Below are positions 43,317-51,223 of a stretch of DNA of 55,132 nucleotides, piece after piece; position 1 is the first letter of the stretch, and each line of letters starts with the position of its first letter. A program made the position numbers and the translations under genes. The notes below the pieces were generated by a model. That model saw only the letters and a list, made by a program, of their open reading frames with translations, was not told the DNA's origin and ran no database searches. Origin of the DNA: Thelocarpon superellum (taxonomy: Eukaryota). The stretch spans positions 124,001-179,132 of the forward strand of contig JAPEUG010000001.1 of assembly GCA_026025795.1 (NCBI GenBank), written 5' to 3'.

Positions 43317-45140
43317 TCAGTATTCCGCCTCGACGCCCTCCTCGCCCTCGGCCGAGTCCGTCGCCACTTCCTCGTAGTCGCGCTCGAGCGCGGCCAGATC
43401 CTCGCGTGCCTCGGAGAATTCGCCCTCCTCCATGCCCTCGCCCACGTACCAGTGCACGAAGGCGCGCTTGGAGTACATCAGATCAAACTTGTGCGACAGC
43501 GCGGACCAGGCCTCGGCGATGGCCGTCGTGTTGGAGAGCATGCACCTGCGGGTCCCCACGGTCAGCTGAGGTCGGCGGGTCTCGCGGGGGAATCCAACGT
43601 ACACGGCACGGTTGACCTTGGCCAGGTCGCCGTTCGGCACCATCTGCGGCGGCTGGTAGCAGATGCCAATCTTGAAGCCCGTCGGGCACCAGTCGACGAA
43701 CTGGATCGTGCGCTTGGTCTTCAGCGTTGCCACGGCGCCGTGCACGTCATTGGGCACCACATCGCCGCGGTACAGCAGGCACGTGGCCATGTACTTGCCG
43801 TTGCGCGGGTCGCACTTGACCATCTGGTTGTTGGGCTCAAAGCACGACATGGAGATCTCCTGTACCGAGTTGGCCTCGTGCGACGCCTTGGCCGCTGAAA
43901 CCACGGGCGCGTACGCCACCAGCGGGAAGTGGATGCGCGGGTACGGCACCAGGTTCGTCTGGAACTCGTTGAGGTCGACATTGAGCGAGCCGTCGAAGCG
44001 GAGCGACGCCGTGATGGATGAGACGACTGGCCGGCCACACGTCAGTCATGCTCTTTGCGCCTGGTCTCGTCCCGCCCCCCTGCGGCCGCCTACCTTGCGC
44101 GATGAGTCGGTTCAAGTTCTCGTAGTTGGGTCGCTCGATGCCGAGGTTCCGTCGGCAGATGTCGTAGATGGCCTCGTTGTCGACCATGAAGCTGCAGTCC
44201 GAGTGCTCGAGCGTGGTGTGCGTTGTGAGAATGGAGTTGTACGGCTCCACCACCGAGGTGGCCACCTGCGGCGCCGGATAGACGCAGAACTCCAGCTTGC
44301 ACTTCTTGCCGTAGTCCACCGACAGACGCTCCATCAACAGCGCGCCGAAGCCCGACCCCGTGCCGCCGCCAAAAGAGTGGAAGACCAAGAAGCCCTGCAG
44401 GCCCGAGCAATTGTCCGCCACACGGCGCACCTTATCCAGCACCTGGTCGATCAACTCCTTACCCACGGTGTAGTGGCCGCGCGCGTAGTTGTTCGACGCA
44501 TCCTCCTTGCCCGTGATCATCTGCTCCGGGTGGAAGAGGCTGCGATACGTGCCCGTCCTCACCTCGTCCACCACGTTGGGTTCGAGGTCACAGTAGATGG
44601 TGCGCGGCACATACTTGCCCTGTCCTGTTGATCACCATCACAAGAAGCGTCAGCCATGGTCGACGGCGCTCCAAGGGGGTCGGTGGTCCAAGGGGCCACG
44701 CGGAAGGCTGACCAGTCTCGGAGAAGAAGGTGCTGAAGCCCTGATCCGGGTCGGCCACCTTGCGTTCCTCGGTGAGATAACCATCGGGCTGATGGCCAAT
44801 GCTACGTCAGTGATCCATGCGCACGTCCGACCGGGCACGTGGGTCTGGTGGTGGGGGCAGGTGTCCGTACCTGGATCCCGTGCTCAAGGCAGTACAGCTG
44901 GGAGGCGTCAGCGCGCCCCTCACCTCTGATGGAATATTGGAAAATCTTCATCGTGGGGCGAATTCGACCTCCAGACGTACCTCCCAACATGAATTCGCAA
45001 TCTGGCATCCAGCCTGGCCGACTGCGATGCACCGGGTCAGCCGCCTGGGACACGCTCACCAAGCCACCGACTACCGGATGGGAAAGCGGGGCAGTGGGGG
45101 GGTCGGGGAAGATACCATTCAAACTGATTACTTCTCTCAT
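43317..45140 (-). CDS. TUB1: Alpha-tubulin
   Basis: [53 protein letters not shown]-terminal EEGVEAEY. Six canonical introns. Confidence 0.98.
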
Positions 45141-46075: not shown

Positions 46076-47012
46076 ATGGCTGTAGGGAAGCTCGGCCTCC
46101 TTGTCATGACCACAGTCCTCCTGCTCGTACAATGTTCCCACGCCAACCTTGAGAAAGTCGTCTTCCTGGGCCCGCCTCCTTCTGTCCTCCCTTATGACTC
46201 TCACCCGATACTGGATACGAGTCTCCGTACCTTGTCGCCCACACACCCCGCCATTGGAGCCCTTGTCCCAGCTGCCTTCCCCGCAGAACACGCCCCGAGA
46301 GGCGCGGAGACTTGGCTTTTGCTCCAAGACCTAGCGGAGGGTCAGCGATACGAAGTCCGTATCTCTTGGGCTGCCACGGTGGGTGCGCTTCTTCCATCGC
46401 CATGTCTCGCCATCATTCTGTGAATATCAGTGATCAGTCGCCTCGCCGATCGGCCGAGCATTACATGAAGCAATGTGAAATCGTGTCTTGTACCTGATCT
46501 TTAGTGAATCTATGGATTGGAACTCACCATTGTTGCAGCAGCCAACCGCATTCTGGCTCGAGCTGCACACCCTACCGCAGATCCTGGACGACCTTTCCCT
46601 CAGGGTCGCCTTCACAAAGTACGCCAAATCGAGCGCAGTCATAGCACCTAAGGCTTCCTCTCGACTGACCGACCCTTCCCCCGCTCTCGTGCTCCAGCTC
46701 TTTGCCGCGGCCGACTATTTCACCGACAACCAGACCTTGATGCATCACGTGCCCGCCGTCCATGTCGACCTAGGTGCGCCCGCTCCTCTCAGTCCAACCC
46801 GATGGCCCAACTGACCGTGCATCTCAACAGTTCTTGATCCGTACTTGTGGAACGTCCTCCCCCGATCGTTAGGCCCTACCGCTGGATATATCGTGACACT
46901 AGCGGTTGGCAGCTATTTTCTCTCGGCCTGGATCTGGGCCTTCGTGCACGGTCTTGGCCAGAGCGCGTCTGTGACCAGGGTATCCCCACCATCTTCGTCG
47001 AAGGCCACTTAG
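46076..47012 (+). CDS. PGA1: GPI mannosyltransferase II co-activator (Pga1 family)
   Basis: Signal peptide then ANLEKVVFLGP, GQRYEVRISWAAT|QPTAF, AAADYF, V..D|VLDPYLWNVLPRSL and a C-terminal TM helix. Introns 46379-46538 and 46774-46830; TAG at 47010-47012. Confidence 0.82.
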
Positions 47013-47027
47013 ACGACAACGATCACG

Positions 47028-47405
47028 ATGCACGGGTTCTACGTTCTCCCATCGGAGATGGTAGATGAAATTATCTCCTACTTGCGGCCGACGGACATGG
47101 TCAATCTGGTCTTCTCGAACTACCATCTACTCTGCTTTCATGGGCTGGCACCTCGACTATCGATCGACCGTCTCGCCACCCTCCTCGCGGCCCCTACGCT
47201 CCGTGGGGATCGAGTGGTCCCACCCCTCTACCGCCTACCCACGGAGTTGCTCATCTACACCATGTCCAAAATGGATCCCCTTGGGTTGGCTACCTTCGTC
47301 TTTGCGCAGTACCCCCATCTTCTTGCCCGAGGCATCGCGCCCGCTCTATCAGGTGGAATGTCACCGCAGTTCATTAAAGCGAGGAATCGTGCGATCCGAA
47401 GCTAG
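47028..47405 (+). CDS. Small protein of two tandem F-box-like repeats (125 aa)
   Basis: Repeat 1 FYVLPSEMVDEIISYL..LVF..Y..L..GLAPRLS and repeat 2 LYRLPTELLIYTMSKM..FVF..Y..L..GIAPALS. Both carry the LPxE F-box start; the internal duplication argues the ORF is coding. Confidence 0.65.
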   Translation: MHGFYVLPSEMVDEIISYLRPTDMVNLVFSNYHLLCFHGLAPRLSIDRLATLLAAPTLRGDRVVPPLYRLPTELLIYTMSKMDPLGLATFVFAQYPHLLARGIAPALSGGMSPQFIKARNRAIRS

Positions 47406-47652
47406 GAGATGGCGGCTGCGCCGTGCGGCGCTGCATTCGTACCTCAAGGTGGGTCCTGAATGGACAGGACGTCACGGCCTTGGGATTCAACTGCTGTCGT
47501 GAAATCATGTCGAGTGTGAGAAAGAACATCTCGGACCTCGTTACACCCCCCTCGTGAAAGCCGATGTTTGCGCCTGCAGCCCGTCGAATCAAACTATGAT
47601 ACAGAAGACTATTATGGACAACACATGACCATCTAAGGAACGCACAGTGAGT

Positions 47653-48854
47653 CTATTCCTCTGCCGCAGCGATAGCGGACGCGGTCGCGGTGCTGTGCGT
47701 CAGGCCAACGGATCCAGTGGCGATCAGGTTCAGCCATGCTGCAAGACGATATCCAGCTGCATGCGAAGTGGTCAGCGCACGACCCATTGCGACCTCGGCG
47801 GGGAGAGTACTCACCTTTGGCGATCTGCAGTTCGAAGACCGGGATGGCAGACGTATAGTAGTCGCCATCAAGCTCGGCGCCATCGAGCACGTCCACGCCG
47901 TCCGGCAAGACCGTGGAGCAGACGTAGGCGTTGGAATCCGACGCCCAACCCATGCTGGTGGTGATGGGGTCCGTCACGTCGATACCGCTGAGCCAGGATG
48001 CCGCTTGCGATGAGTAGTCACCCGATTGGATCGACTGGGTGAGCTTGCTGGCCCAGTCCTGAGCCGTCTGAATATCCGAGCCGCCGGTGTATTTCTCCAG
48101 CATGTTCGTGTCCCAGATGTGATGCAAATTCGTCTTCGTGCCGCCGCTTCATCGCCAAATTAACATCGGCCGTACTCGTGAATGCGGGGATGAGACATAC
48201 AAGGTCACCTCGACATCATTGCCGCCAAGATCTACGCCCGCCTTGTTAGTCTCGAGAGGGGGATCAGAAGCGCGTATCGACATACCCAGATTCTCGTCAT
48301 GGAGCGGCTGGTGCACATCGCCCACAAACTACCCACGACGTATTTCAGTGCCGTCGACCGAGGCAATGACACCAGGAGAGCCACTTACGTGGATGACAAA
48401 TTTCAGGGCCTCGAATCGATCCTCCTGAGAGAGGGATGTGTCCTGGATGCGCGTGGTCTTTGGGGACAGACATCAGCCTGTACTTTCGACCAGCCTGCTA
48501 CTCCTAGGAACTTACATAGTTCTGAATAGCCTGCACGACACATCCACCCTTGCCACAGTCACGCTCAAAGTCGACTCCACAGCTATGCGGGGGGTCGTCT
48601 TTGGCATCGATGAAGTGGTACGGAGCCGAGAAGCGTCCGGCTTTGGTGTAGCGGAAGGTGTCAGCCCAGGGGGCCACGCTGGCCAGGTACGAGGACGACG
48701 TATCCGACAGGAGGTCCTGGCAGTACTTGGCCGTCTCCGTCGTCACCAGGCTGCTCGCGATGAAGGCCACCGTCTCGTGACCCATGCCGCCCCAGGCCTG
48801 GGACGCCGGTATCGACAGCAGCGGGAGCCATAGGTAGGAGAGTGCGGACCGCAT
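47653..48854 (-). CDS. S1/P1 nuclease (secreted Zn nuclease)
   Basis: Signal peptide + WGGMGHETVA, WAD, HFID, ALKFVIH|FVGDVHQPLH, LGGN, NLHHIWD, AGYRLAAWL. Five introns including 69-, 43- and 31-nt exons. Confidence 0.95.
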
Positions 48855-49808: not shown

Positions 49809-51223
49809 TCAAGATGCGGAAGGACCCCGGTCTTTGCACCGCGGGCAGAGCCATCCCGGCTGTCTTCGAACCAAGCCGACACAGGCACGATGGTAGACTC
49901 GATGTGGACAGGCCTGGCCGCGTGTCGTCAGCTCCCCGCCGCTCTCGGATCCCGTTCCTGAATATCTCATGACTGCACTCACCTCGCCTTCACAGATGGC
50001 CTCGGAACCCACACTCCAGGGCTTTCCGCATTCGCAGAGTGCAGAGTTGGGTGAGATCTGATCCCTGGTCTGCTTTGCCATATCCTCGGCCCCGCGCCGA
50101 CCGTGACGATCCGGGCGGCTTTGATCTCGTCCTGTGTCTCGAGCCACGTCGTCGCTGGCTTGCTCGTCCGCCATGATCTGTGTCTCTGTCCTTGTCGTAC
50201 CATCGTATTGTCGCTCTTCTCGATGTTCGTTCTGCGTCGACGACGGTGGGTTCATAATTATGATCGCGCAGGCTCGCATGACACTTCGATCGAGGCGGCC
50301 GTGGAGGACTAACATCGACCCGTGCTTGAGAAACTCCATGGAGACCTCAGATTTCCGAAGCCATTCGACGTTGGTGTTTACGAAGTCGAACAATGTCTCC
50401 GGAAGATGGACGTCGGCGGGGGTGGGCTGTGTTGCCATGAAGCGATCGAATCTCTTGATATACTCTTTCTCCGGGGTTAAGAGATCGGTGAAGTCGTCAA
50501 TGATATCATCGTGCTTTCGCAGCAGCCATTCTTCGTCGGGATCTTCGTCACTGTCGCTCACAAGATCGCCTTCTCTTAACGCCTGCTTGGTGACATTTCG
50601 GAAAAACACCCTGTTGCTGGGATGTTTCGGGACCGGGTGTTTCGCCTTGGATGACATGGCGAAGTCTTTGGTCTCGGTTGTCGACTTTGACGGGGGTGAC
50701 CAGGTCAAGAAGAAGCCCTTTGGGTGCGGCACATATGGCCGGTGGGTGGGGATTATTCAAGTTTTGCACTGCCGTGAGATATCTTCACTCGGATACAGCG
50801 CGCTACGTGATCCAGACCGGCATCTTCATACTGGAACATGCTGTGGTGATGGTGAGGGCAGGTGAAGAGTGGTGATGCCGAGCCAAAGTCTTGCTTCATG
50901 CAGAACGGACAGATGTAGTCAGGCAGCGTGTACGCGCGATGACACCTGCACTTCCTCTGCCATTGAATGCACCATGGAGTGGTATGTGACGCGCGTGACG
51001 CGCTGTGGCTGGGCTGCAGAGGCCGGAGTTGCTTGAAGGATGTTCTGGATGGCCTTATTGAAATTGAATTACAGATCCGTTGGTCTACTTCTACCTCCGA
51101 CCAAACGGCACTACAGGATCCTTCCCACACATGCGGTCCAAGGTAACGCTGATGAGGCGTTCGTCTCACAGTAGGAATGCTAGTAATCTCTGAGACTGGA
51201 GCTCCGAAGTGGACGACGACCAT
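49809..51223 (-). CDS. SUZ12: SUZ12-like Polycomb protein (Zn-finger remnant, VEFS box, C-terminal PHD); 5' part appears disrupted
   Basis: VEFS box FFRNVTKQALREGDLVSDSDEDPDEEWL..IIDDFTDLLTPEKEYIKRFDRFM. PHD C4HC3 after intron 49914-49982. Upstream YICPFC..HSMFQY finger is in a different frame, separated by stops at 50753-50759. Confidence 0.75.

Follow-up and report, generated by a model that had tools for sequence, protein, structure and literature searches.

How is a small gene expressed when its start codon lies only 15 nucleotides (nt) behind the stop codon of its neighbor, on the same strand and in the same reading frame? The question is posed by a 55,132-nt stretch of the Thelocarpon superellum genome (assembly GCA_026025795.1, contig JAPEUG010000001.1, positions 124,001 to 179,132 of the forward strand; hereafter the window, numbered from its first letter), in which a gene resembling PGA1 is followed by an open reading frame (ORF) for a protein of two F-box-like repeats. 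We tentatively propose that this double-F-box protein is made separately, from the AUG at 47028, and chiefly via a transcript nested within the Pga1 unit.

The upstream gene closes with the codons AAG GCC ACT and the TAG at 47010-47012, and after five sense codons ATG 47028 opens an ORF of 125 codons (47028..47405, plus strand, stop TAG in the ORF listing). In the frame of this ATG, TAG 47010 is the sole stop within 46833-47027, and both ORFs thus share one frame. The original prediction had given the same stop, spacing, start and phase; it had also placed an exon boundary at 46831, where splice enumeration puts the start of Pga1 exon 3, and had argued that nothing fits between the two ORFs, which agrees with the measured gap: 15 bases leave space for neither a terminator nor a promoter. 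Because the ORF starts only 15 bases after the Pga1 stop, both genes must share or overlap a transcript. A shared frame arises by chance one time in three, and it is the 15-nt gap that is unusual; the next intergenic gap, to the stop of a convergent S1/P1 nuclease ORF, is 227 nt. No structural signal marks the stop, the local RNA fold around it being no better than that of shuffled sequences (z -0.65), and the spacer has no significant structure.

47013..47027, plus strand: spacer from stop to start codon, 15 nt, ACG ACA ACG ATC ACG, A/C-rich, with ACGA three times
47028..47405, plus strand: double-F-box small-protein gene, 125 codons plus TAG, no intron needed, based on composition, orthologues, family and predicted model

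The ORF is a genuine conserved gene, as its composition, orthologues and family attest. GC content by codon position (0.60/0.43/0.67) matches that of the six long reference ORFs of the window, and the codon log-odds are best in frame 0 among the six frames. A word search recovered four orthologues of 125-138 amino acids (aa) with identities of 99, 72, 69 and 67% and 69 invariant columns, and a profile built from the window ORF and these four, searched against 1.84 billion representatives with no length limit, matched 108 of them at E ≤ 0.001, 42 at E ≤ 1e-10 and 3 at E ≤ 1e-30. Most matches are 90-185 aa long and span the whole profile. Conservation of the ORF is thereby established. Among the 111 relatives counted (P0001-P0004 and P0006-P0112; median length 146 residues), a regular expression for an LPxE-type motif found two copies in 94, one in 16 and none in a single protein, with a median motif-to-motif spacing of 61.5 residues. 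The family is already in databases as unnamed F-box-containing hypothetical proteins of Ascomycota, and the Atlas holds 'hypothetical protein' clusters of 67 and 82 members in which Ascomycota is the commonest taxon. The nearest copy, P0001, lies on an ENA contig of 1536 bases; it is intact and 99% identical, differs by the single change of Asn31 to Ser, and probably comes from another strain of the same species. A metagenome locus (L001), the single match to alignment A1, was treated as spurious, with a stop inside the match and no match to Pga1.

The upstream gene was modeled by enumerating the GT..AG combinations that keep the frame open and taking the most plausible one, which joins exons 46076-46378, 46539-46773 and 46831-47012 into a product of 239 aa.

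46076..46378, plus strand: Pga1-like exon 1, encoding a signal-like N-terminus and the first part of the luminal domain, based on splice enumeration, a weak Pfam Pga1 match and 42% identity to P0016
46379..46538, plus strand: Pga1-like intron 1, 160 nt, GT..AG, GC 0.48
46539..46773, plus strand: Pga1-like exon 2, from splice enumeration, aligning with P0005, P0016, P0034 and P0042
46774..46830, plus strand: Pga1-like intron 2, 57 nt, containing the last ATG (46802) ahead of the F-box start codon
46831..47012, plus strand: Pga1-like exon 3, hydrophobic C-terminal segment, 21-residue tail similar in length to that of P0005, and TAG stop

Hydropathy windows exceed 1.5 only at residues 1-25 and 199-218 of 239, indicating a signal-like N-terminus and a single C-terminal segment, and the protein thus displays the signal sequence, luminal domain and lone C-terminal membrane segment by which a Pga1-type protein can be recognized; the C-terminal membrane helix foreseen for it corresponds to residues 199-218. 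Exon 1 alone scored 12.2 bits against Pfam Pga1 (PF10333, the co-activator of glycosylphosphatidylinositol mannosyltransferase II; cut-off 20) in what was a single-exon query, and nothing matched when exons 2 and 3 were each scanned singly against Pfam. The spliced upstream protein, in turn, shares 42% identity over 179 aa with P0016 (E 8.6e-34), in an N-terminal part of the latter that passes the Pfam Pga1 cut-off (23.3 bits versus 20, profile positions 2-150 of 175), which P0005, P0034 and P0042 do not reach. We accept the gene as Pga1-like by this transitive homology through P0016. P0005, the sole full-length Pga1 orthologue returned by a word search with exon 2 among longer proteins (36% identity to exon 2), closes in much the same way, with a membrane segment and then a tail about as long, so that, with this one orthologue as the comparison, TAG 47010 appears to sit at the usual end of a Pga1-type protein.

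No stretch of the locus is more AT-rich than intron 1 (46379-46538; GC 0.42-0.48), which has four ATGs inside. It has alternative in-frame donors at 46354 and 46378 and acceptors at 46539 and 46542; the gene models of P0034 and P0042 do without the segment matching VRISWAAT, as though the upstream donor of intron 1 had been used, and P0005 seems to keep an intron-like insert at that place.

The neighborhood of the two genes is seen again in distant fungi. Three of the 111 relatives are long, fused gene models (P0016, 391 aa; P0034, 301 aa; P0042, 332 aa), whose N-terminal parts match exons 1-2 of the window Pga1 gene at 42, 32 and 32% identity, respectively (E 8.6e-34 to 8.3e-17); the double-F-box unit makes up their C-terminal parts and shares 33, 33 and 28% identity with the window ORF. 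P0016 passes Pfam Pga1 and Pfam F-box alike, and in the fused models both genes have diverged to a similar degree, as expected of an orthologous pair. The Pga1 part of all three ends with exon 2, and a recognizable exon 3 is present in none; the linker of P0042, of about exon-3 length, is not hydrophobic and its similarity to exon 3 is not significant (E 1.3 and 3.1), and we counted it neither way. An earlier word search for fused forms among longer proteins gave no match at E ≤ 0.01 among 1174 candidates. Judged by their alignments, the fused models are gene models that merge two adjacent genes, whatever their cause. They show that the ORF lies downstream of Pga1 in three distant fungi, near enough to be merged with it, and that the same-strand order of Pga1 and double-F-box gene is old, and we take the pair to be old in filamentous ascomycetes; the neighborhood argument draws on the three fused models, the other 108 relatives being uninformative on this point.

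The relatives therefore bear out one part of what had been asked of them, the recurrence of adjacency, but not the other, the conservation of spacing and phase. The window TAG lies seven codons before the conserved His of a His-Gly-Phe-Tyr motif, and P0002, P0006 and P0007, with 12, 15 and 7 residues ahead of that His, are open in frame where the window has its TAG, while P0003 and P0004 begin six residues before the conserved His and are uninformative on the stop position. In close relatives the start codon falls anywhere from 1 to 15 residues before the conserved Gly-Phe/Leu-Tyr, and, as far as called protein starts can tell, spacing and phase are not conserved, even where relatives share 53-72% identity. 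A hydrophobic or Pga1 exon-3-like segment before the repeats occurs in none of the 111 relatives, save for the signal peptides of the fused models; P0011, P0018 and P0024 have long serine/proline-rich N-terminal extensions that are unrelated to Pga1. The sequence of 47013-47030 reads ACGAca ACGAtc ACGAtg, that is, ACGA three times with a 6-nt period, and the window carries ACG, a single transition away from ATG, six codons ahead of the conserved His, where P0002 (internal Met 7), P0003 and P0004 have Met. The periodicity and the ACG in place of Met suggest that the start codon was recently shifted, or that a short duplication took place.

Four routes to the double-F-box protein can be weighed against these data. 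The original prediction had raised the prospect that the UAG is read through, or edited from adenosine to inosine (A-to-I) to UGG, yielding a Pga1 protein anchored in the endoplasmic reticulum (ER) with a cytosolic double-F-box tail. Editing would take place in sexual development, and the product would have ~370 residues. Both ORFs share a frame and lie five sense codons apart, a luminal domain with one hydrophobic segment near the C-terminus and a tail in the cytosol would be a sensible topology, the A of the UAG is unpaired (a one-base bulge) in the minimum-energy fold, and fungal A-to-I editing is described as preferring U at -1 and often affecting UAG (PMC11156358; PMC4817773, PMC13123824). 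However, the phase is a one-in-three coincidence, the fold at the stop is no better than shuffles and does not place the A in a hairpin loop, editing is known only in some ascomycete lineages, and the ORF retains its own AUG with A at -3. The A at +4 after UAG is not a known leaky context either. The fusion also finds no counterpart among the relatives: a Pga1 exon-3-like or hydrophobic segment joined to the repeats occurs in 0 of 111, exon 3 is skipped or not recognizable in the three fused models, and P0002, P0006 and P0007 are open in frame at the homologous stop position, so that, at the protein level, neither a conserved downstream frame and junction nor stop-free fusions were found. Readthrough or editing is the least likely route across the stop codon, and we regard it as highly improbable. 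Still slighter is the chance of a secreted or luminal fusion in which an alternative splice links Pga1 exons 1-2 with the F-box ORF, as in P0016, P0034 and P0042. Three independent gene models do have this architecture, but they bridge the gap differently, and predictors commonly merge closely spaced genes; moreover, the exon-2 donor is in phase 1 (one base of a split codon), such that use of the AG of the TAG as acceptor would put the ORF out of frame, and a biological use for F-box repeats inside the ER lumen is hard to see. Separate production of the protein is instead suggested by the relatives themselves, most of which stand alone at 90-185 aa, some with non-Pga1 extensions. In the arrangement that we place first, albeit tentatively, the ORF would lie inside the transcription unit of the Pga1-like gene and be reached by a nested transcript starting within Pga1 intron 2 or exon 3, whose leader of up to 223 nt would have no AUG, making the F-box AUG, with its A at -3, the first one; the product would be a small cytosolic protein, translated as a polypeptide of its own and not as a Pga1 extension. 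Such a transcript would end in an AT-richer patch near 47590-47650. A 60-nt composition profile has no AT-richer patch from the Pga1 stop until 47590-47649 (GC 0.40), and because this first patch lies beyond the F-box ORF, Pga1 transcripts probably run through the ORF as well; they would probably share the same 3' end and physically carry the ORF.

46805..47027, plus strand: ATG-free stretch and possible nested leader, 223 nt without ATG in any frame, comprising the end of intron 2 and all of exon 3
47406..47632, no strand assigned: region between convergent stop codons, 227 nt, with the first AT-richer patch after the Pga1 stop (47590-47649, GC 0.40), in which 3' ends probably lie

Only 2.8% of ATG-to-ATG gaps on the plus strand of the window are as long as this stretch. 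An ATATAT(C) string at 46886-46892 (TATAT at 46887-46891), 137 nt upstream of ATG 47028, lies where the Pga1 membrane segment is encoded, in the codons for Gly-Tyr-Ile; the nested transcript could use it as a TATA-like element. Several points weigh against a nested transcript: the TATAT string sits in conserved codons, the Gly-Tyr-Ile motif being present in P0005 too, and may mean nothing; the internal start site is a putative one; the ATG-free stretch is one observation in an empirical tail of ~3% and could reflect the C/T-rich composition of an exon that encodes a membrane segment; and a Pga1 mRNA running through the ORF could suffice without a nested promoter, given the re-initiation spacers of 9-26 nt reported in PMC10352335. 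The last point leads to the arrangement that we rank second, a possible one, in which a single Pga1 mRNA carries both ORFs and ribosomes terminate at the UAG, scan over 15 nt and re-initiate at AUG 47028, giving two proteins in coupled amounts; the two arrangements can coexist. The original prediction had named re-initiation, and published fungal dicistrons with spacers of 9-26 nt make it a legitimate candidate (PMC4471562, PMC10352335, PMC11677970). In Glarea lozoyensis a natural dicistron has a 26-bp gap with neither poly(A) nor promoter signals between two ORFs, on one 12.5-kb transcript (PMC4471562). IGG6, a 9-nt derivative whose sequence is given in PMC11677970, is reported to let ribosomes re-initiate behind long ORFs, with yields of 31-76% of the upstream protein level in S. 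cerevisiae, and to work in P. pastoris and A. nidulans too (PMC10352335). The window pair likewise consists of same-strand ORFs with a short gap, 15 nt, too small for a terminator or promoter and devoid of a poly(A) signal, with no AT-rich patch before ~47590, so that Pga1 mRNAs would probably traverse the downstream ORF; its spacer is unstructured and A/C-rich like IGG6, and the Pga1/F-box neighborhood recurs, merged by predictors, in three distant fungi. On the other side, classical work holds re-initiation to be inefficient after long ORFs (here 239 codons), and the 223-nt ATG-free stretch would have no role. The resemblance of the spacer to IGG6 is one of length class and composition, not of sequence, and because the position of the start codon varies among close relatives (1 to 15 residues before Gly-Phe/Leu-Tyr), a fixed stop-start geometry is not conserved. 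We rank the nested transcript ahead of the dicistron because the ATG-free stretch is the sole discriminating evidence and because of the classical prior against re-initiation after 239 codons. We hold it somewhat unlikely that the locus represents an ancient translated dicistron of filamentous ascomycetes with a housekeeping gene, in which a spacer of ~15 nt for re-initiation would fix the proportion of an ER-luminal cofactor of the glycosylphosphatidylinositol (GPI) pathway and a cytosolic two-F-box protein.

The surroundings comprise, in order, a tubulin gene (minus strand), the Pga1-like gene (plus), the double-F-box gene (plus), an S1/P1 nuclease gene (minus) and a VEFS-box gene (minus), with the three flanking identities taken from Pfam.

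43320..44045, minus strand: tubulin gene, Tubulin_C, E 4.5e-48
47633..48103, minus strand: S1/P1 nuclease gene, 3' part, convergent, Pfam PF02265, E 3e-11
49812..50756, minus strand: VEFS-box polycomb-type gene, E 1e-16

From ~46090 to 47350 the GC skew stays below zero throughout, and beyond this point it reverses, a pattern in line with one or two units on the plus strand and a gene on the minus strand after them. The 3' end of the S1/P1 gene must overlap or abut that of the F-box gene within the 227 nt. The Pfam match of the S1/P1 ORF covers profile positions 169-246 of 258 and stops at residue 98 of 156, pointing to either a C-terminal extension of ~46 residues or an unrecognized intron.

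The protein itself consists of two F-box-like units and no substrate-binding domain. Its two halves align to each other at 37% identity over 41 aa (E 4e-8), indicating an internal duplication, and the window ORF narrowly passes the Pfam F-box cut-off (PF00646, 22.2 bits versus 20.5; residues 7-27, profile 4-24 of 43), in keeping with the label of tandem F-box that the ORF had been given; with PF12937 it stays under the cut-off (18.7 bits versus 24.3).

47046..47162, plus strand: F-box-like repeat 1, residues 7-45, Pfam F-box on 7-27, helices 9-17, 21-30 and 32-37
47235..47351, plus strand: F-box-like repeat 2, residues 70-108, helices 72-80, 84-93 and 95-100, matching Pfam F-box-like in relatives

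Alignment A2 joins the window ORF to 39 relatives in 40 rows, of which PF00646 matched 38 and PF12937 35 at E ≤ 0.01, with best values of 3.5e-11 and 1.5e-11, and the Pfam-scoring repeat differs by relative, being repeat 1 in some and repeat 2 in others. The A2 consensus of repeat 1, LPxELxxxIxxxLxPxxFINFxFAxYxLLxxxGLAPxLS, is followed by a variable linker and by that of repeat 2, LPxELxLxIMxxLxPxDxMxFVxANYxxLxxxGIAPxLT. With the 40-row alignment as input, AlphaFold2 predicted a compact, all-helical structure (mean predicted local distance difference test score, pLDDT, 90.8; predicted template modeling score, pTM, 0.81) with three helices per repeat plus two further helices. The fold searches used the whole two-repeat model: Foldseek against the PDB gave no match at E ≤ 0.001, and VIA-align wide over 48,161 chains peaked at Z 2.7; an AnkB F-box/Skp1 entry came out at Z 2.1, and no F-box match rose above noise. 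The two-repeat fold is thus predicted with confidence and, as a whole, lacks a clear PDB counterpart. By its motifs, the most likely role of the protein would be Skp1 or SCF binding, as an adaptor or as a competitor that lacks a substrate-binding domain, and with F-box units as its sole components it suggests a Skp1/SCF regulator or competitor rather than a substrate adaptor. The whole-model searches, in which F-box/Skp1 reached only Z 2.1 against a best Z of 2.7, lend such a Skp1-binding role no support, and in the predicted model the two F-box-like units may pack on each other, not on Skp1.

In the open-access literature searched we found no description of a two-F-box small protein, no link between Pga1 and F-box proteins, and no conserved Pezizomycotina dicistron beyond Glarea; the ascomycete dicistrons shown by experiment in the literature found are only the split secondary-metabolite synthetases of Glarea. 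Translated dicistrons are very rare among eukaryotic cellular genes. The locus is a candidate for the known class of closely packed or dicistronic fungal gene pairs, and were the dicistron true, Ascomycota would have in it their first conserved operon-like pair outside secondary metabolism, and it would supply a natural context for short re-initiation spacers of the Glarea type. A conserved pair with one member from an essential pathway would allow two questions to be tested in a natural setting, namely whether re-initiation over short spacers is general to fungal ribosomes and why the pair stays together. The small two-F-box family is widespread and, by prediction, confidently folded, and for annotation the locus explains why predictors merge both genes and warns against calling the ORF an extension of Pga1.

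Several known systems resemble this locus in part. In the A-to-I stop-loss editing of Fusarium and Neurospora a UAG is likewise followed by an open frame, but the cases described in PMC4817773, PMC11156358 and PMC13123824 add short or destabilizing tails rather than a conserved independent gene, and the window UAG lacks a hairpin-loop context. The glpks3-glnrps7 dicistron of Glarea with its IGG1/IGG6 spacer is alike in having two same-strand ascomycete ORFs, a short A/C-rich spacer of a few bases to 26 bp, a gap with neither polyadenylation signal nor promoter, and two separate proteins as the expected outcome, and the polycistronic transcripts of mushroom-forming fungi are alike in that neighboring same-strand genes lie on one long-read transcript (PMC4503453). 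For Glarea, however, the transcript, the two proteins and re-initiation were shown experimentally, and the mushroom transcripts, from basidiomycetes, come from long-read RNA sequencing, whereas the window pair is a candidate; its spacer sequence differs from IGG6, and it couples a housekeeping GPI-pathway cofactor with a small F-box protein, with no evident shared pathway, where the Glarea pairs are split secondary-metabolite synthetases. Compared with the F-box proteins of PF00646/PF12937, the substrate adaptors of SCF ubiquitin ligases, the window protein is without a WD40, leucine-rich repeat (LRR) or Kelch substrate-binding domain, its Pfam match covers only the first half of the profile, and its whole model has no clear PDB match; like them, it has LPxE(L/M)xxxIxxxL and two further helices, but has this unit twice, packed into 125 aa.

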